This document shows, in pieces, positions 5,333 through 57,351 of a DNA stretch of 64,000 nucleotides. Position 1 is the stretch's first letter. Each line of letters begins with the position of its first letter. Position numbers and translations under genes: made by a program. The stretch is from Terriglobia bacterium (GTDB taxonomy: Bacteria; Acidobacteriota; Terriglobia; 20CM-2-55-15): positions 5,894,002 to 5,958,001 of the forward strand of contig CBDHGK010000041.1 of NCBI GenBank assembly GCA_965263045.1, written 5' to 3'. Below the pieces are notes generated by a model. It was not told the origin of the DNA. It was given only the letters and a program-made list of their open reading frames with translations, and made no database searches.

Positions 5333-6217
5333 ATGCGGCCTCTTTCTAAATCCGGAAACGTGCTTGCCTGCGTGTCGGTTTGCCTCATGTTTGCCGTGTC
5401 GGCCGGGGCGTATCCCGTTGTCTGGCATCTGTCGGACGAGGATTCAGACATCTACATCCTGGGAACAGTCCACGTCCTGCCACCCGGACTGGAATGGCAA
5501 AGCGACGAGATCAATGCCGCGTTCGAGGGCGCCGACACGATTTGGTTCGAGGCTCCCGTGGCGGATCCGGCGGCGCAGATGGAGACGGTGCAACTCATAT
5601 ATCAGTACGGACTCAACGAGCCGGACAATCCTCTCTCAGAGCAGATCAGTGCGGAAGGTCAGGCCTTACTCGCCGGGATCATATCCCGCTACGGCATCGG
5701 GGCGACCGACCTGGATGCCATGCGACCGTGGATGGCGGCAATGACGCTGAGTCTCGCCCTCATTCAATCGCTGGATTACGAGCCGAAATCCGGGGTGGAT
5801 TTCGTGCTGTGGAGAAAAGCCAACGGCAGCGGGAAAGAGATCGCGTACTTCGAAACGCTCGAACAACAGGTGCGCTTCATGGCGGACCTGCCGCCCGAGA
5901 TCGAGGCCGCCTACCTGGAACAAACCCTCAAGGATTTCGAAGGCAGCGAAGCCCAACTCGAAGAACTCGTTCAAGCATGGAACGCTGGAGACATTCGAAC
6001 GATAGACCGTGTGATGAACGGAGAAACGCGTGATGCGGCGCCGGAGGTCCACGATGTACTCCTCGTTGAGCGGAACCGGGTCTGGCTTCAGACGATCAAG
6101 GAAACGCTCGCGGGCTCGGGCACAGACTTCATGGCGGTGGGTGCGGGCCATGTGGCCGGGCCCGACGGCCTGATCGAACTCCTTCGCGCGGAAGGATTCG
6201 AGGTTGCCGGCCCATAA
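5333..6217 (+). CDS. TraB/GumN family protein (secreted)
   Basis: YILGTVHV motif and overall TraB/GumN-like sequence. Signal peptide begins at MRPLSKSGNVLACVSVCLMFAVSAGA. Confidence 0.7.
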   Translation: MRPLSKSGNVLACVSVCLMFAVSAGAYPVVWHLSDEDSDIYILGTVHVLPPGLEWQSDEINAAFEGADTIWFEAPVADPAAQMETVQLIYQYGLNEPDNPLSEQISAEGQALLAGIISRYGIGATDLDAMRPWMAAMTLSLALIQSLDYEPKSGVDFVLWRKANGSGKEIAYFETLEQQVRFMADLPPEIEAAYLEQTLKDFEGSEAQLEELVQAWNAGDIRTIDRVMNGETRDAAPEVHDVLLVERNRVWLQTIKETLAGSGTDFMAVGAGHVAGPDGLIELLRAEGFEVAGP

Positions 6218-12117: not shown

Positions 12118-12427
12118 CAAATATCCCTCCGTCATTTGCACAATGACGTTCTTTGACGGTCGTTGTTTTGTTGTGTGTTCGAGGTTTCGGCAGCATATAC
12201 GACTGGGAGTCGGCTGTCCACAGGACTGGCTCTACACCGTGATGGGTGCCCTGTGACGCCCGGACTACGCAGCTCAAGCGCGAAGTTGTCACGATCCAAC
12301 TCTCCGCTCTGTGTCCCAGGACGCTCTTCTTATGGAAGACTGAACGCCACTAGTCCCTGAACAAGCGTGATTGATGAGGAATTGAAAGTGGAATAACCGC
12401 CGAAGTACCCGAAATGCCCCCTCTCCG

Positions 12428-14060
12428 TGCGAAAAAAACCTTGGACAGATTCTTTGGAGAAGGAGGCATTTCAGATGAACGATTATACGCGCAAGAACAT
12501 GAGGAACCGCAAGCGGCGAATTGAGCGTCGGCTTGGGGATCGGAATTGGAAAGATCAGGCGAAGCCGATGCTGTCGGCGCGCAACATCCGGTACGAGATG
12601 GGAGACCGGATGAGGGGTCTGTCGGTGGGCGGCATCGGAATGATGCATCAGGTGGCGCGGCGGACCGGACTGATCGAAGCCATCGACAAGGACGTGCATG
12701 TGCTGAAGCGGCATCTGCCCTACCAGGAATCGGATCACGTGTTGAACATCGCCTACAACGCGTTGAGTGGGGGCACGTGTATGGAAGATATCGAACTGCG
12801 GCGCAATGACGAAGTGTATCTGGACGCGTTGGGAGCACAGCGGATTCCGGATCCGACCACGGCGGGAGACTTCTGCCGGCGATTTGAGGAAGACGACGTG
12901 GAGTCGCTGATGGACACGTTCAATAAAGTGCGGCTGAAAGTCTGGCGCCAGCAGCCCGATGCGTTTTTCGAGGAAGCGGTTCTGGAGGCGGACGGGACAT
13001 TGGCCCCAACCACCGGAGAATGCAAAGACGGGATGGACGTGGCCTACGACGGGACATGGGGTTATCACCCACTGTTGATTTCGCTGGCGAACACGGCCGA
13101 ACCGTTATACCTGGTGAACCGGAGCGGCAACCGGCCCTCGCATGAGGGAGCGGCCAAACGGTTCGATCAGGCAATCGCGTTGTGCCAGCGTGCGGGGTTC
13201 GATCAGATCCTGCTGCGCGGGGACACCGACTTCAGCCAGACCCGGTATTTGGATGGATGGGACGACCAGGGCGTGGGCTTCATCTTCGGCATCGACGCGA
13301 TGAAAAACCTGGTGGCCCGGGCCGACCAATTGGAGCCGGACTGCTGGGCGCGCCTGGAACGTCCCGCCAAGTACGAGGTAGCCAGCCAACCCCGCCAGCG
13401 TCCCGACAAGGTCAAGGAACGGATCGTTCGGGAGCGTGACTTTGAGAATATCCGCTTGCGGGGCGAGGATGTGGCCGAGTTTGCGTATCGGCCCGGAGCC
13501 TGCGATCGGGACTACCGCGTCGTTGTGGTGCGAAAGAATCTGTCGGTGGCCAAAGGGGAGCAGGTGTTGTTCGACGACATCCGGTACTTCTTCTACATTA
13601 CCAACCGTGCGGATCCTGCGGACCAGATCGTGATGCGTGCGAATCAACGGTGCAATCAAGAGAATCTTATTGAGCAGCTCAAGAACGGCGTACACGCCTT
13701 GGGGATGCCGGTCGGGGATCAGACCAGCAACTGGGCCTACATGGTGATGGCCTCACTGGCCTGGACACTGAAGGCGTGGTTTGCGTTATTGCTGCCCGAA
13801 ACCGGACGTTGGGGCCAGAAGTATCAGGCCGAGAAGCAGACCGTGCTACGCATGGAGTTCAAAACGTTCCTGAACGCCTTCATGCTCGTGCCTTGCCAGC
13901 TCGTGCGTACTGGTCGGCGCATCGTCTTCCGGCTGATGGCCTGGAACCCGTGGTTGCCAGTCTTGTTTCGTGCCGTGGATGTGTTGCGTCAACCTCTGCG
14001 ATGCTGACCCGATCATGGATCTGAGCCCGGGCGGTCGAGGTCCCGGTTTCTTTCAACCCT
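12428..14060 (+). mobile_element. IS1380-family insertion sequence (~1.63 kb)
   Basis: A single DDE transposase ORF is flanked by imperfect inverted repeats: left GCGAAAAAAACCTTGGAC (~12430) and right GTCCCGGTTTCTTTCAAC (~14043, reverse complement GTTGAAAGAAACCGGGAC). Confidence 0.5.
12475..14007 (+). CDS. IS1380-family DDE transposase
   Basis: Family-typical blocks NALSGGTCMEDIE, YDGTWGYHPL and LLRGDTDFS. Strong SD (GGAGAAGGAGG) upstream of the ATG at 12475. Confidence 0.8.
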   Translation: MNDYTRKNMRNRKRRIERRLGDRNWKDQAKPMLSARNIRYEMGDRMRGLSVGGIGMMHQVARRTGLIEAIDKDVHVLKRHLPYQESDHVLNIAYNALSGGTCMEDIELRRNDEVYLDALGAQRIPDPTTAGDFCRRFEEDDVESLMDTFNKVRLKVWRQQPDAFFEEAVLEADGTLAPTTGECKDGMDVAYDGTWGYHPLLISLANTAEPLYLVNRSGNRPSHEGAAKRFDQAIALCQRAGFDQILLRGDTDFSQTRYLDGWDDQGVGFIFGIDAMKNLVARADQLEPDCWARLERPAKYEVASQPRQRPDKVKERIVRERDFENIRLRGEDVAEFAYRPGACDRDYRVVVVRKNLSVAKGEQVLFDDIRYFFYITNRADPADQIVMRANQRCNQENLIEQLKNGVHALGMPVGDQTSNWAYMVMASLAWTLKAWFALLLPETGRWGQKYQAEKQTVLRMEFKTFLNAFMLVPCQLVRTGRRIVFRLMAWNPWLPVLFRAVDVLRQPLRC

Positions 14061-14142: not shown

Positions 14143-16167
14143 TTATGCCTCCAATTTTACGGCCGTGAACCGGCCGTTTGTCCACTGGTTATGCGCTTGT
14201 TTTGGGACTAGTTCGGCGGAGTGCAGGCTGTCCCCAATCGCAACGACGATGTATTGACGCGCTCCAACCATGTAGCTCACCGGCGGCGCGGTCGTGCCGG
14301 CCTCAAGCTCCCTCTCCCAGACAGTTGCCCCGGTTGCTTTATCGTAGGCGCGGAACATGTGCCCCCCGCTGTTGGTGACGATCTCGGGGGGCATCCCCGG
14401 CGGGACGCGTGGGTCATTGTCAAAATCAATGTTGGTTTGTCCTTCGCCGATGAATAAGAGCGTCTTCGTCAGCAGGGGCGAAGGTCGGCCCGGGCTGCCC
14501 AGAGGGCCTACATTCAGATGTGCAATCGCCGGGTGGTCACGCGGACCATCGCCGTTGGGCACCATCCAGACATGTTCCCCGGCGTTCATGTCGACCGCCG
14601 TAATCCTACCGTAGGGTGGTTTGAACAGAGGTAGTCCTCGCGGCCCGCCGATCCATTGTCGCATCCCTTTCACATAGCGAAGGTTTTGCCGTTCGGGATC
14701 GCCCTCCTGAATGTCGGCCACGAAAGGAGACGTAATCGATGGGATATATAGAATTCCCGTGTCGGGATCGAAGGCAGCGCCCTGGACGTCCGCTCCACCT
14801 TGAGAGCCGGGAAGCTGAATCGTCCCTAACGTGTCATTCGGGCCATCTCCGCGAACCGACGGTGGGGTGAACAGTGGGCCTGTGACGTAGCGTTCAGCGA
14901 TTTCAAGCGCTTCAGCGCGAAGCTCCGGTGTGAAATCGATCAGGTTTTCTTCAACGGAGCCCTGCAGGTCGAACGGTGGTGGCTTCGTCGGGAACGGTTG
15001 CGTCGGCGAAGTTTGCTCGCCCGGTGTAGTCGATGGGGGTGCTGGACGTTCTTCGATCGGCCACACCGGTTCACCTGTCGCGCGGTCAAAAACGAACGCA
15101 AATGCCTGTTTCGTGATCTGTGTGACCGCTTTGACCGCCTGGCCGTCCACGGTGATGTCCATCAGGATCGGGGCCGCCGGGAGGTCATAGTCCCACAAAC
15201 CGTGGTGGACCGTCTGATAATGCCAGACCCGCTCGCCGGTTTCCGCGTCCACCGCGACCAGGCTCTGTCCGAACAGGTTGTCGCCGATCCGGTGGCCCCC
15301 GTACATATCGTTGGTTGGCGATGACAGCGGCATGTATATGTAACCGAGTTCTTCGTCCGCACTGAAAAGTGACCACACCGGCACGTGGCCGGTGTAGGAC
15401 CACGATTCATCTTCCCAGGTGTCGGTACCGAACTCTCCTGCCTGGGGGATCGTGTGAAAGATCCAGCGCAGGTCGCCGGTCTCGACGTCGAAAGCGCGCA
15501 CGTCCCCGCGTATCGCCTCTTTGGTCGTGAACGTATCCGACATCGACTGTCCCACGACCACGACATCGCGCACCACCATGGGTGCGCCGCCCCAGACGTA
15601 GAATGCCCCTTCCGCCAGACCCGTCGTCAGATCGACCCGGCCCGCGTCGCCGAAATCAGGGTACAACTCTCCGGTCTCCGCATTGAGGGCGTACAGATAC
15701 CGGTCGCGCTGTACAAGGACTCTCGCGTCGGTTCCATCCGACCAGTACGCGACTCCACGAGTACTCGTTCCGAACAGATCATTGACCCCACCATAGGGTT
15801 CCTGAACCCAGATCGTCTCACCTGTTTCCGGGTCAAACGCCTCCACCAGACCGATCCCGTTCGGGATGAAGGCCATGCCATCAACCACCAGAGGCAGGGC
15901 CACATAATTGTTCGGGTAGAGCAGCGCCGGATTCATGTCCAGGTAGTGAGCGTCGACCCCCGGACGGCGCCACGCCACCTGTAGGTCGTCGACGTTGGTT
16001 GCATCGATCGTGTCCAGTGGAGTGTACTTCGTGCTGCCGGAGTCGCCGCCAAAGGCACGCCACTCGCCACCGGCCGCGCCCAGTTGCGCCTGAAGCGAGG
16101 GAACCAGCAGCAGCGAACCCATCAGTGCATGAGTCAAGAACAGGAACAACCTTGCCGGCGCGTTCAT
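14143..16167 (-). CDS. PQQ-dependent dehydrogenase, methanol/ethanol family (secreted quinoprotein)
   Basis: Signal peptide, then W-motif propeller repeats and a VWHYQTVHHGLWDYD active-site block. Confidence 0.8.
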   Translation of the reverse strand: MNAPARLFLFLTHALMGSLLLVPSLQAQLGAAGGEWRAFGGDSGSTKYTPLDTIDATNVDDLQVAWRRPGVDAHYLDMNPALLYPNNYVALPLVVDGMAFIPNGIGLVEAFDPETGETIWVQEPYGGVNDLFGTSTRGVAYWSDGTDARVLVQRDRYLYALNAETGELYPDFGDAGRVDLTTGLAEGAFYVWGGAPMVVRDVVVVGQSMSDTFTTKEAIRGDVRAFDVETGDLRWIFHTIPQAGEFGTDTWEDESWSYTGHVPVWSLFSADEELGYIYMPLSSPTNDMYGGHRIGDNLFGQSLVAVDAETGERVWHYQTVHHGLWDYDLPAAPILMDITVDGQAVKAVTQITKQAFAFVFDRATGEPVWPIEERPAPPSTTPGEQTSPTQPFPTKPPPFDLQGSVEENLIDFTPELRAEALEIAERYVTGPLFTPPSVRGDGPNDTLGTIQLPGSQGGADVQGAAFDPDTGILYIPSITSPFVADIQEGDPERQNLRYVKGMRQWIGGPRGLPLFKPPYGRITAVDMNAGEHVWMVPNGDGPRDHPAIAHLNVGPLGSPGRPSPLLTKTLLFIGEGQTNIDFDNDPRVPPGMPPEIVTNSGGHMFRAYDKATGATVWERELEAGTTAPPVSYMVGARQYIVVAIGDSLHSAELVPKQAHNQWTNGRFTAVKLEA

Positions 16168-16505: not shown

Positions 16506-16939
16506 GGGGCTAGTTTTGAGCCATGTCAAAGGAATAACTATTCGCAAACGAGAATCTTCGCGGACGGGCTGGAAGAACGGAGACAACGGGTGCAGCAGCG
16601 GCACGCGATCTCTGTTTAGAATTCCGAATCCGGCAATGCGCGCATGAGCGGTCAACGTTTAATAGCGGGCCCTATGTTTTCCATGAGATTCCGCTTCGCG
16701 CGCCGGGTAGAATTGCGTGATCAACCATTTGGACCTGATTCGGAACTCCGATCCAGGTCGCACGTGCTGTGGTCCCGAACTGCACGATCGTTGACTCCAC
16801 AGTAGTGCTCATTTTTCTCTTCCCGTCCCGGAAGCCTATTTGAGTAGAATAGCGGGTGAATTCTAAAAACGTTTCGGTCCAGTCCGGGTCATGGGCCGTC
16901 CCGACCCGAAGAAAAGCGGTCGACCCTTGGGGGATAGAG

Positions 16940-19012
16940 ATGAAAAATAAGGACAAACGGTGGCAGCGGTCGGTGACATTCAAGTGGCTCATTGCGGCAC
17001 TCGGCATGCTGGTTATTGCGCCAACAGCGGTCTTGTCCCAGGGACCGGGAGTCGAGAACGGGCAGTGGTCCTACATCGGCGGGGACGCCTGGCACACACG
17101 CTACACCCAGGCGAGTGAGATCAATTCCTCCAACTTCGAAAACATGGAGGTCGTCTGGGAGTGGAACGCGGCGAGTTTCGGCTCAAGTACCCCGCGGTCA
17201 ACACCCACCTACGTCGACGGTAAGTTGATCACGGTCACCGGCGAGCGTCGGCATATCGTGGCTCTAGATCCCGAAACGGGAGAGCTTCTCTGGAGTTATT
17301 CTGAGCCGATGACCGCGCGCTACGAGTACTCCATGCGAAAGGGTTACGGAAAAGGGATCGCGTACGGTGAGATCGACGGCCGCGGCGTCGTATTTCTAGC
17401 GACACCCGCATTTTTCCTCCACGCCATCGATGCCGAGACCGGCCTGCACCTTGAAAACTGGGGCACGAGGATAGGGCTGGAGGGCTTCCCGGAGACGGGC
17501 GTCGTGGATCTGCTGCCACCCCTTATCGCGGATTGGGACCGGTGGCTGGAATCCGGCGAAGAGTACGATCCTTATTACGGAATCCCCCTGGAGCTGGGCT
17601 ACATCACGGCATCGTCCCCGCCCATTGTTGTGAATGGCACCGTCGTCGTGGGGAACTCCGCGGAGCAGGGGTACAACCAGACCCGCATCGAGAACGTTCC
17701 CGGCGACATCCTCGCGTTCGATGCGCGGACCGGCCAGTACAAGTGGAAGTTCCACGTCATCCCGCGACCGGGTGAGTTGGGACACGAGACGTGGGAGAAC
17801 GATGCCTGGCAGTGGACGGGCGATGTCTCGTCCTGGGCGCCGCTATCCGCCGATCCGGAGCTCGGGTTGGTCTACGTTCCGACGAATGGTCCCACCATCG
17901 ATTACTATGGCGGGTTCCATCCCGGGGATAACTTATTCGGCACGAGTCTGATCGCTCTCGATGTCGAGACCGGTAACCGGGCCTGGCATTACCAACTGGT
18001 TCACCACGACATTTGGAACTACGACACCCCGACGGCGCCAATACTGATGGACGTGACGGTCGACGGGGATGAGATCCCCGGCGTCTTTCAGGTCACCAAA
18101 CAGTCGTTCGTTTACGCTTTCAACCGGGAGACCGGTGAGCCGATCTGGCCCATCGAAGAACGGCCCGTACCGCAATCCCGGGTACCCGGTGAGCAGCTCT
18201 CTGCAACGCAACCGTTTCCGACCCGACCGGCGCCGTTCGACATCCAGGGGAGAACTGAGGAACACCTCATCGACTTTACGCCCGAGATTAAACGCAGGGC
18301 GATGGAAGTGGCGCTCGAGAACAACCTGTTCGTCCCCCTGTTCAGCCCGCCGACCCATGTCGGCGACCCGGAACTGGTGGTGCCGGCCCGGGCGTGTCCG
18401 GGCGGGGGCGGCGGCGCGAACATTACCGGACCGCCTGTCGCCGATCCGGTGGCGGGCGTAATCTTCATCAACTCGCAAAGCGCATGCACCACGATCCATC
18501 TCGCACCGGCGTCGGACTCTCCATTGGACGGACCCGCGCAGACGGGGACCAACCACTCCGACTACTCGAGAGCGATCGACGTGGAAGCCCCGCCCAGAAC
18601 GGAGACCCTGGATGGGCTCTCAATCTGGAGGGGACCGGTCGGGCGGATCACGGCGATCGATATGAATACAGGGGAACACCTCTGGGTGGTCCCGCACGGG
18701 GATGCGCCTCGAGAGCAACAGGAGCTGATCCGGAATCACCCGTTGCTCCAGGGGATCGAGGGTGTTCCGGCGAATCCCGGCCGCCTCGGCCAGGCCGCTA
18801 TGTTGACGACGCCGACGCTGCTGCTTGCTTCAGGTCAGACCAGCGATGGCGCGCCGCACCTGTTCGCAATCGACAAGCAGACCGGTGAGCGTGTCGGGGC
18901 TGTGGAGATACCGGACGTTTCGCGGTACGGCATGTCGAGTTGGGTCCACGAAGGACGCCAGTACGTCATCGTTCAGCTCGAAGACGGTCTGGCGGCGATG
19001 GCGTTGCGCTGA
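16940..19012 (+). CDS. PQQ-dependent dehydrogenase, methanol/ethanol family (paralogue of 14143..16167)
   Basis: Signal peptide from MKNKDKRW..., AWHYQLVHHDIWNYD block and the same domain order as the divergent neighbour. Confidence 0.8.
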   Translation: MKNKDKRWQRSVTFKWLIAALGMLVIAPTAVLSQGPGVENGQWSYIGGDAWHTRYTQASEINSSNFENMEVVWEWNAASFGSSTPRSTPTYVDGKLITVTGERRHIVALDPETGELLWSYSEPMTARYEYSMRKGYGKGIAYGEIDGRGVVFLATPAFFLHAIDAETGLHLENWGTRIGLEGFPETGVVDLLPPLIADWDRWLESGEEYDPYYGIPLELGYITASSPPIVVNGTVVVGNSAEQGYNQTRIENVPGDILAFDARTGQYKWKFHVIPRPGELGHETWENDAWQWTGDVSSWAPLSADPELGLVYVPTNGPTIDYYGGFHPGDNLFGTSLIALDVETGNRAWHYQLVHHDIWNYDTPTAPILMDVTVDGDEIPGVFQVTKQSFVYAFNRETGEPIWPIEERPVPQSRVPGEQLSATQPFPTRPAPFDIQGRTEEHLIDFTPEIKRRAMEVALENNLFVPLFSPPTHVGDPELVVPARACPGGGGGANITGPPVADPVAGVIFINSQSACTTIHLAPASDSPLDGPAQTGTNHSDYSRAIDVEAPPRTETLDGLSIWRGPVGRITAIDMNTGEHLWVVPHGDAPREQQELIRNHPLLQGIEGVPANPGRLGQAAMLTTPTLLLASGQTSDGAPHLFAIDKQTGERVGAVEIPDVSRYGMSSWVHEGRQYVIVQLEDGLAAMALR

Positions 19013-48838: not shown

Positions 48839-49897
48839 TCATTCCGCGGCAGATTCCACCGAAGCGAGATCCCTCGATACCTGCTGTAGGATCTTCAGTG
48901 AACGATGGCACGCAATGGGATCGAAAATTCGAACCGTTGTGATCAACTCGTCGGCACCGGTCTGCTCCAAGAAGTGGCCGACGCTCTGTCGCAGTGAATC
49001 GGGGGAACCCACGAACGCATATCGAAGCCTCCTCTCCACCGCCAGTTTCTCCTGCGGCGTCCAGTAGGCCTCGATATCGTCGACGGGCGGACCGAAGGGC
49101 TCCCGAAGACCACGCATCATATCTGTCGACGCCGCCTGTTGCGACGTGAACAGCCACCGGGCCTCGTCGTCCGTATCGGCCGCCACGACATTCATTCCGA
49201 CCATCGCATAGGGTTGGTCGAGATCATCCGATGGGCGAAAGCCTTTCCGGTAGGCTTCCAGCGCGTGCATCAGATAGTCGGGCGCAAAGTGAGATGCGAA
49301 GGCATAGGGAAGCCCGAGTTGGGCGGCCAATTGAGCGCTGAACAGACTCGATCCGAGCAACCAGACTGGAACCGACAACCCGGTGCCGGGAACGGCACGC
49401 ACACTCTGTTGGGGCAGGGCCGCACGGAAATACGACTGCAGCTCCAACACATCTCGCGGAAAATCGTTGTCGGAACCTGAGAGAGTGCGTCGTAAGGCGT
49501 GTGCTGTCCGACGGTCCGTACCCGGTGCACGACCCAGTGCCAGATCGATGCGGCCGGGGTAAAGGGATTCGAGAGTGCCGAAATGCTCGGCGATTACGAG
49601 GGGCGCGTGATTGGGCAGCATCACTCCGCCCGCGCCCACGCGAATCTTTTCGGTTGCACCTGCGACGTGCCCGATCAGGACGCTGGTCGCCGCGCTCCCG
49701 ATCCCGCTCATGTTGTGATGTTCAGCGAGCCAGTATCGTTTGTAGTCCAGCTTTTCCGCCAGTTGTGCCTGCTCGCGCATCAGGTGGAAAGCGTGGCGGG
49801 CATCGCCGCCCGCCCGGATCGGGGCCAGGTCCAGTATCGAAATCGGAGTCACAATCGCTAATTCACAGCCCGCGGGGCCTTTTGACGCGGGAGGCAA
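48839..49897 (-). CDS. LLM-class (luciferase-like) flavin-dependent oxidoreductase
   Basis: TIM-barrel LLM family sequence (ISILDLAPI..., [18 protein letters not shown]). Confidence 0.75.
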
Positions 49898-51575: not shown

Positions 51576-53573
51576 TTGCGTGTCATGAATGAGAAGAAAA
51601 ATTCGCTGAAGTGGTACCGGGTGGCGGACGTCGACGAACTCGGGTCGGGCCGTGTGAAAACCGTAACGGCGGACACGCAATCGATGGCGCTGACCCACGT
51701 CAACGGTGAGTTCACCGCGATGGATAACCGGTGCCCACATCAGGGAGGTCCACTCGGCGAAGGGTCCATCGAAGTCGGCGTCGATGATCAGTGCTGGTTG
51801 CGCTGCCCCTGGCACGGTTGGGACTTCGACCCGCAGACGGGCCGACCGCCGGGCGGACACGAGGACAGCGGTCAAACCCTCTATCCCCTTGAAGTGCGGT
51901 CAGACGGTATTTATGTCGGGCTTCCGACTGAGGTGCCCCGGGTCGACACCGTCACCGACGTCATGGCTGAAACGATGACGAACTGGGGCGTGGGCACCGT
52001 CTTTGGGATGGTGGGCCACTCGAACCTGGGACTGGCCGACGCACTGCGTCTCCAGGAGGAGAAAGGCCGCCTGAAATACTACGGGGTCCGTCACGAAGGT
52101 GCGGCTGCCTTCGCCTGCTCCGGCTATGCGAAGCTTACGGGCCGGCCCGCAGCCTGTCTGACGATCGCCGGTCCGGGTGCGACCAACCTGATGACCGGGC
52201 TCTGGGATGCGAAAGTGGACCGGGCGCCGGTTCTGGCACTGACCGGTCAGGTTGATGTGCAGGTCCTCGGACCCGGGGCTTTTCAGGAAATCGATCTCGC
52301 GGCAGCATTCGCACCCGTGGCCCGCTTCAGTCAAACCGTGCTCCATACCTCCAAACATGCGGAGCTGATGACGCTGGCGTGCAAGAGCGCCATCGTCGAA
52401 CGCGATGTGGCCCACTTGATCTTTCCCGACGACGTCCAGACCCTTCCCGCCTCGGAGTCGGGCCGCGCCTCAACTCCAGATGGCCGGGTGTCCGTTCCAA
52501 CAATTGCACCCGACGACGCGGTACTGAATGACGCGATTGCCCGGATCAACAAATCGGCGCGACCCATCATCGTCGTCGGCTATGGGGCGCGCGACACGAT
52601 GGGCGACATTGTCGACCTGGCCGAGCGACTGCACTCGCCCGTCCTGACGACGTTCAAAGCCAAGGGCCAGATCGCCGATCATCATCCCCTGGCCGCGGGT
52701 GTCCTGGGCCGTTCGGGAACGCCCGTGGCGAGTTGGTTCATGAACGAGTGCGACCTGATCCTGGCCCTGGGGGCCTCGTTTTCCAACCACACGGGAATCA
52801 CCCCGACGAAACCCATCATCCAGGTCGATTTCGATCGCATGGCACTGGGCAAGTTTCATCCCGTGACGGTGCCGCTGTGGGGGGAAATCGGCGTCACATC
52901 CCGACGCATGGCCGACAGGATCTCCCAGCCAGCCGGGTCCATCGACCAGCGGCCCGAACTCGTCGAACGCTGGGCGATCTGGCGCGAGGAAAAACGGAGC
53001 CGGATCAACGATGATCAGGGCCGGGGACTAAATTCTGCGGCCGTCTTCGCCGCGCTCACAACTGCGATTCCTGCCGACGCCATTATCGCCGTCGATGTCG
53101 GAAACAATACGTATTCTTTCGGGCGGTACTTTGAATGTCAGGACCAGCGGATCCTGATGTCGGGCTATCTGGGCTCCATCGGGTTTTCGTTTCCCGCGGC
53201 AATGGGCGCGTGGGCTGCGACCGAGGACGGCGACGCATACAGAGGACGCAAAGTCGTGTCTGTCAGCGGCGATGGCGGATTCGGTCAGTACATGGGTGAA
53301 TTTACAACGGCCGTTAAATATGGCATGAACATCACCCACGTCCTGCTCAACAACTCACAGCTCGGCAAGATTTCCAAAGAACAGCGTGCCGGTGAGTGGC
53401 CCGTGTGGCAAACGGCGCTGCACAACCCCAGTTTCGCCAGCTACGCCCGGGAGTGTGGCGGCAAAGGCGTGCGGGTGACTCGGTCGGAAGAACTCGCTCC
53501 GGCACTGGCCGAGGCCCTGGCCCATCCTGGCCCCGCACTCGTTGAGATTGTCACTGATGCCGACCTGATTTAG
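51576..53573 (+). CDS. Fusion protein: N-terminal Rieske [2Fe-2S] domain plus thiamine-diphosphate-dependent enzyme (POX/ALS family)
   Basis: The Rieske CxH...CxxH block is CPHQGGP...CPWHGW. It is followed by all three domains of a TPP enzyme: N-terminal Pyr (GVGTVFGMVGHSN), central, and C-terminal PP with GDGGFGQYMGEF. Confidence 0.75.
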   Translation: MRVMNEKKNSLKWYRVADVDELGSGRVKTVTADTQSMALTHVNGEFTAMDNRCPHQGGPLGEGSIEVGVDDQCWLRCPWHGWDFDPQTGRPPGGHEDSGQTLYPLEVRSDGIYVGLPTEVPRVDTVTDVMAETMTNWGVGTVFGMVGHSNLGLADALRLQEEKGRLKYYGVRHEGAAAFACSGYAKLTGRPAACLTIAGPGATNLMTGLWDAKVDRAPVLALTGQVDVQVLGPGAFQEIDLAAAFAPVARFSQTVLHTSKHAELMTLACKSAIVERDVAHLIFPDDVQTLPASESGRASTPDGRVSVPTIAPDDAVLNDAIARINKSARPIIVVGYGARDTMGDIVDLAERLHSPVLTTFKAKGQIADHHPLAAGVLGRSGTPVASWFMNECDLILALGASFSNHTGITPTKPIIQVDFDRMALGKFHPVTVPLWGEIGVTSRRMADRISQPAGSIDQRPELVERWAIWREEKRSRINDDQGRGLNSAAVFAALTTAIPADAIIAVDVGNNTYSFGRYFECQDQRILMSGYLGSIGFSFPAAMGAWAATEDGDAYRGRKVVSVSGDGGFGQYMGEFTTAVKYGMNITHVLLNNSQLGKISKEQRAGEWPVWQTALHNPSFASYARECGGKGVRVTRSEELAPALAEALAHPGPALVEIVTDADLI

Positions 53574-53715
53574 AAATGCGGGCGCACGGGCGCCCGTTGA
53601 GAGATCCCTCGGCCCGGGCGCACCACAGACCGCGATCGATTGACCCGCGACGGTTCAGCGCACGTTGTTCAGGGTCCTGGGCTCCGCCCCGCGGAGCTTC
53701 GCGTACACTGGAACC

Positions 53716-54645
53716 ATGAACGCCCCCCCGAAGGTTGTCGTGATCGGCCCTGGCGCCGTAGGCGGATACTTTGGCGGCAAGCTGGCCCTCAATGGAGCAG
53801 GGCTGACGCTGGTGGGACGGCCGGGACTTCGGGGTGCTCACATGGAGACGCTCGCACGCGACGGCCTGCGCATCGAGGCACGCGATCTGGAGGCGACCAT
53901 TCCGGTCAAGGTCACCGACGACCCCAGCGTGGTTGGTGATGCCGACCTGATACTCGTCGCCGTGAAAACGCTGGACACTCCCGCGGCTGCCCGCGCTATC
54001 GCGCCCCACCTCCCTCCGGACGCCATTGTCGTCAGTTTGCAGAATGGGGTCGACAACGTCGATCGACTGGCAGCGGGTGGGGTGGATGCCCTCCCGGGGG
54101 TGGTCTACGTTGCCGTCGCCATCGACAGTCCCGGTGTGGTCACACACCGGGGCCGTGGCGATCTGGTGATTGGGCATGCCACCCGCGCGGATGACGTGCA
54201 GCGTGTGGCCGACTGGTTCGAGTCGGCCGGCGTGCCCAGTCGTGTGTCCGACCGGATCGAAGCAGAATTGTGGGGCAAGCTGGTGATCAACGCCATGGCC
54301 AACGCCATCAGCGCGTTGACCGGCGCGCCCTACGCCACCGTTGCGGGACACGAACCGTCGATGGGTGTGGCGATGGACGTCGCCGCCGAGGCCTTCCGCG
54401 TTGCGCGCGCGGCGGGGATCGGGCTGGATGAGGCAGCGGTCACCGCCGAGGCGGCGACGATCTACGGAGCGATGGGCCAGGCAACCTCCTCCACACAGCA
54501 GGATATCGCGCGGGGTAAACCCACCGAGATCGACGCGCTCAACGGCGTGATCGCACTGAAGGGAAAGGCCTTGGGTGTTCCCACCCCCGTCAACCGGGCC
54601 CTGTGGGCTCTTGTTTCTCTGCGTGAACAGATCGAGGCGCGCTGA
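53716..54645 (+). CDS. panE: 2-dehydropantoate 2-reductase family (ketopantoate reductase-like) oxidoreductase
   Basis: Rossmann VVVIGPGAVGGYFGGKLA, and an ApbA/PanE family C-terminal domain. Confidence 0.7.
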   Translation: MNAPPKVVVIGPGAVGGYFGGKLALNGAGLTLVGRPGLRGAHMETLARDGLRIEARDLEATIPVKVTDDPSVVGDADLILVAVKTLDTPAAARAIAPHLPPDAIVVSLQNGVDNVDRLAAGGVDALPGVVYVAVAIDSPGVVTHRGRGDLVIGHATRADDVQRVADWFESAGVPSRVSDRIEAELWGKLVINAMANAISALTGAPYATVAGHEPSMGVAMDVAAEAFRVARAAGIGLDEAAVTAEAATIYGAMGQATSSTQQDIARGKPTEIDALNGVIALKGKALGVPTPVNRALWALVSLREQIEAR

Positions 54646-54799
54646 AGCGTACGACAATCAGGCCAGGGGTTGATCTTTCCTACCCCAGCCGGAATCACGC
54701 CGTCATCGGCCAACTGGTCTTTGGCCGGGCTTCGCGCGGAGCAGCAGGACGTCGCTGCTTTCTGTGCCCCTCATCAGCCGCGCCGTCTACATCGACTGC

Positions 54800-55337: not shown

Positions 55338-55814
55338 CTATTCCCCAAGAGTCCGATACTTCCCACCATAAAAGAGCAGGGGCTCTCCCCCACCCAGATC
55401 GCCTCCGACCACTTCACCGACGAACATATCGTGATCCCCGGCTTCAAGGACGCCGGTCAATTTGCAGTCCAGATATCCCAGCGTGTCTTTAAGAATCGGC
55501 GCTCCGGTCCCGGAGTCGGTCCACTCCAGGCCCGTGAAGTCTTTCGGACCCGGTGTGGCAAAACGTGTGGATATATCTTCCTGGCTTTGAGTCAGGATAT
55601 TGATCGCGTAACACTGCCCGTCGTTCAGACATCGGTGGATCATCGCTTTCTTTTCCACCGAGACCACAACCAGCGGAGGATCCAGCGAGAGCGACATGAC
55701 CGCGTTGGCCGTCATCGCTGTAATTTCACCATCGCCATATCGGGTGGTCACCACCGTCACACCTGTCGCGAACTGTCCCATGATCTGCCGTAGCAACTTA
55801 GCGTCAAATGCCAT
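55338..55814 (-). CDS. Flavin reductase family protein (NAD(P)H:flavin oxidoreductase, split-barrel)
   Basis: GQFATGVTVVTT...AMTANAVMSLSLDPPLVVVSV family block. 158 aa from MAFDAKL. The longer ORF extends to 56066. Confidence 0.7.
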   Translation of the reverse strand: MAFDAKLLRQIMGQFATGVTVVTTRYGDGEITAMTANAVMSLSLDPPLVVVSVEKKAMIHRCLNDGQCYAINILTQSQEDISTRFATPGPKDFTGLEWTDSGTGAPILKDTLGYLDCKLTGVLEAGDHDMFVGEVVGGDLGGGEPLLFYGGKYRTLGE

Positions 55815-56253
55815 GTCTGTCCTTTCTCTGTTGCCACCTTTTTCAAAGGCGGATAGGAAAAATAGGAAGCCCACGGGCAGTATAGCCAGACTGCAGGAAA
55901 AAAGTGGATGGGGAATTTGACCGTTTCCCGGTGCGGATCCCGGCTCGCGGGTTGGATCGCACAGCCACAGATGCATGCAATGCGCGGTCACCGTACTGGT
56001 TGGTCTTTTCCGTAACGCCTCTTGATACAGTCCAACGGCATCTCCGCCGGCCGAGGACAGAGCCATGCGTTTTGTTCCGGGGCCGTCTCAGATCAACCAC
56101 GGCATAGAAAGGCACAGTAAGTGAATTGACAAAACGACAGATCGTCTCCAGTCTGGCGCCGACGGCTCGGTCGGTAACAGAAGCGCATTTGGATGGTCCA
56201 GTCCGGACACTTCGGGTTAAATGTCATCACAGAATACTCAGGAGGAGAACACG

Positions 56254-57351
56254 ATGAACGAATGGTTAACCAGAGCCTCACGCCGAATACTCATGCTTGC
56301 GATGGTGCTGGGATTAGCAGCACCGCCGCTGATGGCGCAGTTTCCGCCGAATATCAATGCCGCCGCGCCGGATGTGACCGATACGCATTTGCAGATCTGG
56401 GGCGAACGTTTCCCGCCGGGTAGCGAAGTGTGGCTGGCCGACCAACGGTTGACGGGCTTGGTCGTGGACCCGAGCGGCAATTTGATCACCGCGCTGCTTC
56501 CCCCCGTGCGAATTCATGGAACGTTTATGCTGCGAGTGGTCGAGCCCTCCCTGGGGAGGCTGGGGCGGTCCAATTTTTTTGAAGTGACGTTGGGAGCGAT
56601 CGGCCTTACAGGTGCCGCGGGTACGGATGGTGTGGACGGAAGTGATGGAGTGGATGGGGTCGACGGAGTGAACGGATTACCCGGGGCTCCTGGATTGCCG
56701 GGAGTCAATGGGGCGAATTGCTACGACGGGATCGGGATGACGGTGGCGGATTGCCAGGGAGCGCAGGGTCAGCCCGGACAGCCGGGATCGGATGCGGACG
56801 TGTGTGCGGTATACGCAATTCTTGGACAGGTGCCACCATTTGGCTCGGGGCTGCCGTGCGCCCCGACGATGCGGTTTGTGGACAACGGGGATGGAACGAT
56901 TACGGATAACCAGACGGGTCTGATGTGGGAGAAGAAGACGGCGTGCGGAGCCCAAGACCTTAACGATCCTCACTGCGTGGAGAATCGCTATGCGTGGTCA
57001 ACTAGTTTTCTTGACCCGAACGGCACGTTGTACAGCGATTTTCTTGTAAAATTGAACAGCGCCAGCCCCGAAATCGATAGTGTTACTGGCGAACTCACGG
57101 AGGTATACGGGGACTGGCGGATACCGACTCGAGCTGAACTGGAGGGCATTCTGGTGGAGCCTAATCCGTGCGGGCCGACACCGTGCATCGATGCGGCATT
57201 CGGTCCGACCCAGGCGTCCTTCTACTGGTCGTCGGCTACCAACGCCCTCTTTCCGCTCGACGCGTGGTTCGTCGACTTCAACAATGGCTTCGTGTTCTTC
57301 AACCTTAAGGGCAGCGGCAACTACGCGCGCGGGGTGCGAGGCGGCCGGTGA
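56254..57351 (+). CDS. Secreted collagen-like repeat protein with a C-terminal DUF1566 (Lcl C-terminal) domain
   Basis: Signal peptide. About 12 G-x-x triplets. DUF1566 blocks TGLMWEKK and DWRIPTRAELEGIL. Confidence 0.7.
   Translation: MNEWLTRASRRILMLAMVLGLAAPPLMAQFPPNINAAAPDVTDTHLQIWGERFPPGSEVWLADQRLTGLVVDPSGNLITALLPPVRIHGTFMLRVVEPSLGRLGRSNFFEVTLGAIGLTGAAGTDGVDGSDGVDGVDGVNGLPGAPGLPGVNGANCYDGIGMTVADCQGAQGQPGQPGSDADVCAVYAILGQVPPFGSGLPCAPTMRFVDNGDGTITDNQTGLMWEKKTACGAQDLNDPHCVENRYAWSTSFLDPNGTLYSDFLVKLNSASPEIDSVTGELTEVYGDWRIPTRAELEGILVEPNPCGPTPCIDAAFGPTQASFYWSSATNALFPLDAWFVDFNNGFVFFNLKGSGNYARGVRGGR
56611..56718 (+). repeat. Collagen-like G-x-x triplet repeat region (coding)
   Basis: GLTGAAGTDGVDGSDGVDGVDGVNGLPGAPGLPGVNG. 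Confidence 0.6.

Follow-up and report, generated by a model that had tools for sequence, protein, structure and literature searches.

The Rieske-ThDP fusion gene and its conservation

We analyzed a 64,000-nucleotide (nt) stretch of DNA from a Terriglobia bacterium (contig CBDHGK010000041.1, positions 5,894,002 to 5,958,001; here referred to as the window), which carries a gene for a Rieske-type [2Fe-2S] domain fused to a thiamine diphosphate (ThDP)-dependent enzyme. The original prediction had placed a Rieske domain, a complete ThDP enzyme, and a PanE-like gene between positions 51576 and 54645 of the window, and the motifs and Pfam domains of all three are indeed present there. The fusion occupies an uninterrupted open reading frame (ORF) from 51576 to 53573 on the forward strand, which encodes 665 amino acids (aa) if counted from the TTG codon at 51576. 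The true start is almost certainly the ATG codon at 51585, considering that the sequence AGAGG lies ~10 nt upstream and that P0001, a database protein of identical sequence, and its relatives measure 660 to 663 aa; the gene would then span 51585 to 53573 and yield a 662-aa product. Residue numbers given here refer to this 662-aa form, and Pfam positions refer to the 665-aa form.

Pfam analysis of the ORF identified a Rieske domain (PF00355; residues 12 to 90, 63.5 bits, E value of 1.8e-17, gathering cut-off of 20.3) followed, in canonical order, by TPP_enzyme_N (residues 125 to 242), TPP_enzyme_M (318 to 441), and TPP_enzyme_C (507 to 658), which scored 113.9, 107.9, and 122.7 bits against gathering cut-offs of 26.8, 30.4, and 21.9, respectively. 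Based on the Pfam match, the cluster ligands, and an AF2 model, the Rieske-type ferredoxin domain extends from 51606 to 51926 (aa 8 to 114). Its four ligand codons can be read directly: C50 (51732-51734) and H52 (51738-51740) lie in the motif CPHQGGP, and C74 (51804-51806) and H77 (51813-51815) lie in CPWHGW. A short linker (51927 to 51947, aa 115 to 121), delimited by the secondary structure of the AF2 model and by the start of the alignment with Escherichia coli PoxB at aa 122, leads into the Pyr domain; in the model, no more than ~8 residues connect the Rieske domain to the Pyr domain. The Pyr (TPP_enzyme_N) domain itself (51948 to 52301) holds F233 and the cofactor-activating glutamate E171 (codon 52095-52097), which aligns with PoxB E50. 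It is followed by the central, nucleotide/FAD-type TPP_enzyme_M domain assigned by Pfam (52527 to 52898) and by the PP (TPP_enzyme_C) domain (53094 to 53549), which contains V505, K595, E599, and the ThDP/Mg motif GDGG...NN. This motif, part of which reads GDGGFGQYMGE, runs from G562-D563-G564 to N589-N590 (aa 562 to 590, nt 53268 to 53354) and fits the pattern GDG-X(24-27)-NN.

When 5.8 billion proteins were searched, at least 120 protein clusters at 78 to 82% identity were retrieved, all of which combine a Rieske domain with TPP_enzyme_N, M, and C and have lengths of 659 to 671 aa (nearly all 660 to 663 aa). With each species represented by a single genome, at least 595 genomes contained a relative, and the best 80 of these (65 to 82% identity) served as our locus set. 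The fusion is a continuous ORF in at least 71 of the 80 loci, with the others ending at contig edges or differing in called length, and the linker between the Rieske and ThDP parts is collinear across homologues. If a frameshift in sequencing or an overlooked stop codon had merged separate genes for a Rieske ferredoxin and a ThDP enzyme here, homologues would be expected as two adjacent genes. They are instead uniformly single ORFs of the same length and architecture, in independent clusters as well as in genome loci, which excludes such an artefact for practical purposes and bears out the prediction of a single polypeptide. Residue conservation was assessed by aligning 71 full-length members of the family. 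C50, H52, C74, H77, E171, F233, Q234, R376, V505, D563, N590, K595, and E599 are invariant in all 71, so that the predicted enzyme shares its cluster ligands, its catalytic Glu, and its ThDP motif with all of these relatives. Judged from these comparisons, the fusion gene is real and under selection.

The original prediction had also described the pairing of these domains as uncommon. This holds in the sense that the fusions account for a minor fraction of ThDP enzymes as a whole, but not in absolute terms, since they form a populous family that comprises thousands of metagenome proteins in addition to the species-representative genomes. The best 80 genomes are nearly all from marine Alpha- and Gammaproteobacteria and include Woeseiaceae, Arenicellales, Granulosicoccus, Hyphomicrobiales, Parvibaculaceae, Maricaulaceae, Stappiaceae/Roseibium, and sponge symbionts, along with a few bins labelled Acidobacteriota or Nitrospirota; Acidobacteria bacterium Mor1 and Polyangiales are additional named members. 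The family is abundant in marine sediment and in sponge-associated Proteobacteria. It is also compact: when 1.84 billion cluster representatives were searched exhaustively with HMMER, only ~3 full-length representatives were left at 50% clustering. Databases list its members under automatic names only ("pyruvate oxidase," "Rieske 2Fe-2S domain-containing protein," or "thiamine pyrophosphate-dependent enzyme"), and a search of the full-text literature found no account of Rieske- or rubredoxin-fused ThDP enzymes of the pyruvate oxidase (POX) type.

Affinities of the ThDP core and the Rieske domain

Among curated NCBIfam models, the fusion protein matched the pyruvate oxidase model PRK08611 best (380 bits, equivalog cut-off of 742), and the other POX and PoxB models also scored below their cut-offs (PRK09124, 298 versus 792; TIGR02720, 276 versus 638). 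PoxB-type pyruvate dehydrogenase models reached ~298 to 301 bits, and acetohydroxyacid synthase (AHAS) large subunits were likewise among the best curated models. FAD-containing families as a group scored 276 to 380 bits, whereas scores of at most 233 bits were obtained for three families that are not known to contain FAD (AlsS, Xsc, and the 5-guanidino-2-oxopentanoate decarboxylase family); three families that are unnamed or ambiguously named fell in the range of 246 to 292 bits. The best sequence match of known structure was E. coli PoxB (E value of 2e-62; residues 122 to 657 on PoxB residues 4 to 527), and the second-best solved relative overall was AHAS I. An AF2 model built from a 39-sequence alignment (pLDDT of 89.9, pTM of 0.82) superimposed best on proteolytically truncated PoxB (3EYA; TM score of 0.92 to 0.93, root mean square deviation of 2.5 Å) and on C-terminally truncated pyruvate:quinone oxidoreductase (PQO) from Corynebacterium glutamicum (9EV6; TM score of 0.91). 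No solved chain in our copy of the Protein Data Bank (PDB) covered more than ~75% of the query, and a Rieske domain and a ThDP enzyme in one chain therefore have no structural precedent there.

PoxB (pyruvate:ubiquinone oxidoreductase, also "pyruvate dehydrogenase [cytochrome]"; 3EY9 and 3EYA) and C. glutamicum PQO (9EV3 to 9EV6) share the three-domain ThDP fold of the fusion enzyme, and its central domain is probably of the FAD-binding kind found in both. The catalytic Glu, the GDG...NN motif, the Phe and Val of the substrate pocket, and a counterpart of PoxB E469 (E599) are all present. Sequence identity to PoxB and PQO is only ~26 to 30%, however, and the fusion enzyme differs from both at its two ends. 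Its chain ends 5 residues past the position aligned to residue 527 of the 572 in PoxB (i.e., at ~530) and thus has no equivalent of the C-terminal membrane-binding, auto-inhibitory peptide, whereas the N terminus carries the additional Rieske ferredoxin domain. The presumed electron acceptor is different as well, being the enzyme's own Fe-S domain rather than quinone. The pyruvate oxidases of Lactobacillus plantarum and Aerococcus (EC 1.2.3.3; 1POX and 1V5E) also have the same fold and cofactor motifs, but the fusion enzyme is ~55 residues shorter at the C terminus and has no equivalent of Phe479; the presence of a fused one-electron carrier argues against O2 as the acceptor for which it is designed.

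The substrate pocket resembles that of PoxB. In PoxB, F112 and V380 flank the methyl group of pyruvate and touch the alkyl moiety of this substrate or of 2-oxobutyrate (PMC7824062). The corresponding residues of the fusion enzyme are F233 and V505, and their conservation points to a small 2-oxoacid as the substrate. When searched alone, the central domain found AHAS I as its best match and also retrieved POX, PQO, plant AHAS, cyclohexanedione hydrolase (CDH), and PoxB; two other ThDP enzymes, CsmA and BbmA, ranked second and third. ADP-binding or cofactor-free relatives ranked below the FAD-binding enzymes, and the central domain is therefore likely to bind FAD.

AHAS and glyoxylate carboligase contain FAD although they carry out no net redox chemistry, and the fusion enzyme might similarly be a nonredox carboligase or lyase in which the flavin is structural and the Rieske domain either senses redox state, O2, or NO or keeps the flavin reduced. 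The rank of AHAS I, both for the central domain and among solved relatives overall, would agree with this, as would the absence of the Phe that relays electrons in PoxB. We nevertheless consider such an activity quite unlikely, given that the overall best hidden Markov model and structural matches are to the oxidases PoxB, PQO, and POX and that two further lines of evidence, the exchange of Fe-S carriers and the redox proteins encoded nearby in relatives (see below), speak against it.

The closest solved relatives of the Rieske domain are soluble Rieske ferredoxins, namely mouse RFESD, T4moC, the ferredoxins of naphthalene dioxygenase (NDO) and biphenyl dioxygenase (BphF), and CarAc. The domain shares with them its size and the CxH...CxxH ligands, and the second Cys that would form a bc1-type disulfide is absent from each ligand loop. 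By sequence, it therefore belongs to the soluble, low-potential (oxygenase-ferredoxin) type rather than to the bc1/b6f type. The AF2 model of this region is rich in β-strands, with pLDDT values of ~80 to 90. The domain differs from the soluble ferredoxins in being covalently joined to its presumed reductase, which is a ThDP enzyme and not an NAD(P)H-dependent flavoprotein.

Rubredoxin-fused relatives and gene neighborhoods

The next-nearest full-length proteins (39 to 51% identity in the ThDP core; P0127, P0131, P0135, P0142, and P0144) carry an N-terminal rubredoxin. These uncharacterized enzymes, listed at NCBI as "rubredoxin" or "thiamine pyrophosphate-binding protein" (e.g., P0127 and P0310), hold their carrier, an Fe(Cys)4 rubredoxin in place of the Rieske [2Fe-2S] domain, at the same N-terminal position as the Rieske-fused enzymes and occur largely in other phyla. 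They form a large group, with clusters of up to 714 members, which interleaves in score with other Rieske-fused proteins; the unfused proteins retrieved do not exceed 42% identity to the ThDP core. In a neighbor-joining tree of 185 sequences (522 ThDP-core columns, PoxB as the outgroup, no bootstrap), the 79 rubredoxin-fused and the 57 Rieske-fused proteins all fell into one clade that contained zero unfused members. Within it, a 16-member rubredoxin subclade separated 3 Rieske-fused proteins from the main 54. One relative, P0121 (873 aa), has four Fe-S modules in series, with Fer4_19, two zf-CDGSH domains, and a Rieske domain preceding the ThDP enzyme. The exchange of one-electron carriers at a single position, together with this multicluster extension, is the pattern that would be expected if the N-terminal domain let electrons out or in, and not if it were a structural or sensor domain. 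In one clade, such a pattern resembles an electron wire and not a specific sensor, which is the first of the two points held against a carboligase above. At the position of K595, rubredoxin-fused relatives show Lys, Met, or Asn.

The genes of the rubredoxin-fused relatives are mostly solitary, their surroundings are miscellaneous, and no recurring oxygenase partner was present beside them in the loci examined. At one locus (L087), a separate 45-aa rubredoxin gene (5751-5888) lies directly upstream of a rubredoxin-fused relative, and its product might serve the fused carrier as an acceptor outside the enzyme.

The Rieske-fused genes in the 80 related loci have recurrent partners. A 538-aa protein that combines a Rieske domain with a GltS-type FMN/Fe-S protein (partner cluster c1) is encoded at 41 of the 80 loci, usually adjacent to the fusion gene and on the same strand. 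At 25 loci, there is a gene for an MsrQ-like heme-b membrane protein of 354 aa that carries a Rieske domain at its C terminus (c3); it is paired with a third protein, c4, at all 25, and c1 is also present at 20 of them. c4 is an uncharacterized protein of ~255 aa whose gene always adjoins that of c3 (e.g., L052, 3593-4372 on the reverse strand; L064, 5248-5976 on the forward strand). It matched no Pfam or NCBIfam model, has an N-terminal membrane segment, and contains a conserved C-terminal Cys/His motif, CDxKC...G.M.PG.G..HK.CA..C..GG.P, which looks like a metal or redox site. The genes lie on one strand in the order c1, c3, c4, and fusion gene at L064 and L067 and in the order fusion gene, c1, c3, c4, and c2 at L039, L042, and L044; L083 (5519-9989) provides an example of the recurrent module. 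Further recurrent partners are DUF5996, on which the full-text literature held nothing relevant, and a Na+/H+ exchanger, and some loci have an upstream ECF sigma/anti-sigma pair that is transcribed divergently. Three different redox proteins, each with its own Rieske domain, can thus share one operon-like cluster. In some relatives with 81% identity, a gene of the NADPH-dependent FMN reductase family (FMN_red) replaces that of the Rieske-GltS protein, upstream of DUF5996 and the fusion gene (L081, 6403-7266; L082, 490-1239). The presence of redox proteins as neighbors is the second point against a carboligase.

None of these surroundings recur in the window. When it was compared with partner clusters c1 to c24, the sole match was that of the Rieske part of c3 to the fusion gene itself. 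The gene that follows the fusion gene on the same strand after a gap of ~142 nt encodes an ApbA/PanE-family 2-oxoacid (ketopantoate) reductase (53716 to 54645, within an ORF that starts at 53665; the ATG at 53716 is the probable start), which scored 250 bits against the TIGR00745 cut-off of 141 and contains both the ApbA and ApbA_C domains of Pfam. A 368-aa antisense ORF at 53551-54657 on the reverse strand is longer than this gene and was rejected as an artefact of high GC content. The original prediction had called the function of the PanE-like gene consistent with a shared pathway; in such a pathway, the two enzymes would act on the same 2-oxoacid or acyloin. Both families act on 2-oxoacids, and we found no terminator-like site between the two genes, so that they may be cotranscribed in this window. 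However, tblastn searches within 6 kb of the fusion gene detected the PanE-like protein at none of the 80 related loci, and independent gene calls likewise placed no PanE gene beside the fusion gene in the 81%-identical relatives that were checked. Five other flanking proteins of the window also had no match within 6 kb at any of the 80 loci. A shared pathway is therefore highly improbable; as far as gene order can tell, the PanE-like gene is only a chance neighbor that forms no conserved unit with the fusion gene.

Elsewhere around the fusion gene, the window encodes a luciferase-like monooxygenase (48839-49897, reverse strand) and a Flavin_Reduct-domain protein (55338-56066, reverse strand), which flank the region and might together make up a two-component flavin monooxygenase. 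At its N terminus, the flavin reductase ORF is extended by ~95 nonhomologous aa, and its true start is thus probably internal. A protein with a collagen-like Gly-X-Y repeat (~aa 126 to 165) followed by an Lcl C-terminal domain is encoded at 56221-57351 on the forward strand, and DinB, a PEP-CTERM protein, and a Ser/Thr kinase are encoded by other surrounding genes. Farther away, a DDE transposase gene (12427-14007, forward strand) adjoins two genes for PQQ-dependent dehydrogenases (14143-16167, reverse strand; 16856-19012, forward strand). The window contains no rRNA or tRNA gene, and the 10 largest ORFs sampled between 1 and 41 kb included no housekeeping marker; the window as a whole looks like accessory or variable genome.

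The neighborhoods in relatives raise the question of whether the fusion enzyme is, with the chemistry proposed below, a pyruvate-driven reductase dedicated not to general metabolism but to a Rieske-to-Rieske chain formed by the Rieske-GltS-like protein, the MsrQ-like heme-b/Rieske protein, and c4, or alternatively to an oxygenase. The single-strand gene orders, the strict pairing of c3 with c4, the frequent company of c1, and the resemblance of c3 to MsrQ favor a dedicated chain. The oxygenase variant could draw on the homology of the Rieske domain to ferredoxins that serve oxygenases and on the monooxygenase and flavin reductase genes near the fusion gene. We regard a dedicated role of either kind as possible but rather unlikely, because c1 is found at only about half of the loci and c3 and c4 at about a third, because none of them is encoded in the window, and because the rubredoxin-fused relatives are mostly solitary genes. 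The monooxygenase and flavin reductase of the window, moreover, are not conserved neighbors.

Proposed reaction and its implications

Taken together, these data suggest that the fusion protein is a soluble, cytoplasmic flavin- and ThDP-dependent oxidative decarboxylase that uses pyruvate or some other small 2-oxoacid and hands electrons one by one to its own Fe-S domain, a reading to which we assign a probability of roughly 60%. ThDP, activated by Glu171, would attack and decarboxylate the 2-oxoacid. The two electrons of hydroxyethyl-ThDP would then move to the flavin in the central domain and leave it singly through the N-terminal low-potential Rieske [2Fe-2S] domain toward a protein acceptor. 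The Rieske domain would thereby take over the role of the C-terminal membrane tail that delivers the electrons of PoxB and PQO to quinone. This proposal builds on the observed domain architecture, residue conservation, PoxB-like fold, lack of a C-terminal tail, and interchange of Rieske and rubredoxin domains, and it is favored further by the other Rieske redox proteins in the operon-like clusters of relatives; from these we infer that FAD is bound, that pyruvate is the substrate, which way the electrons flow, and what accepts them. An electron-transfer-coupled 2-oxoacid reaction, as the original prediction had suggested, thus remains the best reading, considering both the PoxB/PQO-like core and the sister enzymes with rubredoxin at the equivalent position. 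At the level of the family, the fusion enzymes are abundant but uncharacterized and, by their sequences, are best described as a pyruvate oxidase/quinone oxidoreductase scaffold with a hard-wired, presumptive Fe-S acceptor.

Several findings weigh against an oxidative decarboxylase of this kind. All equivalog cut-offs were widely missed, and the fusion enzyme is therefore not an orthologue of any named enzyme. The margins by which the central domain matched FAD-binding enzymes over ADP-binding and cofactor-free relatives were modest. We take PoxB F465 to be the aromatic residue between ThDP and flavin, equivalent to F479 of L. plantarum POX, and its position is occupied by the invariant K595. 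The invariant R376 likewise replaces PoxB L253, a residue involved in electron transfer to FAD (PMC7824062). An electron path through the fusion enzyme, if there is one, would thus be unlike that of PoxB and POX. With regard to the Rieske domain, the potential of a ferredoxin-type cluster is similar to that of a flavin, and the direction of transfer is therefore not dictated by the sequence. Finally, the 64-kb window contains no conserved redox partner of the fusion gene.

The electrons of the pyruvate oxidase family are known to go to O2 or to membrane quinone. If the proposed reaction is correct, a clade with a hard-wired one-electron Fe-S carrier would add a third type of acceptor on the same scaffold. 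Such an enzyme would also resemble pyruvate or 2-oxoacid:ferredoxin oxidoreductases (PFOR/OFOR) in being a ThDP enzyme that gives the electrons of a 2-oxoacid to Fe-S clusters of the same protein. The likeness is one of function only, as PFOR and OFOR have an unrelated domain organization with no homology to the fusion enzyme beyond the ThDP fold, contain [4Fe-4S] clusters, depend on coenzyme A, have no flavin, and are usually oxygen sensitive. The clade would also provide aerobes with a flavin-based enzyme functionally analogous to pyruvate:ferredoxin oxidoreductase. Because cultured strains such as Roseibium sp. SCP15 carry it, the family is directly testable, and a possible use of its members is as pyruvate-driven, self-contained reductases for Rieske- or rubredoxin-dependent oxygenases.

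A broader and more speculative proposal, to which we attach a low probability, is that the Rieske- and rubredoxin-fused enzymes constitute a third functional class of the pyruvate oxidase family, next to the O2-linked and the quinone-linked enzymes, namely oxygen-tolerant, flavin-based pyruvate:iron-sulfur-protein oxidoreductases, and that the Rieske form of marine Proteobacteria feeds a Rieske-to-Rieske chain across the membrane. If so, the Rieske-GltS-like protein, the MsrQ-like protein, and their Cys/His partner would move the reducing power of 2-oxoacids while bypassing NAD(P)H and the quinone pool, and this cross-membrane chain might serve envelope repair or stress defense.

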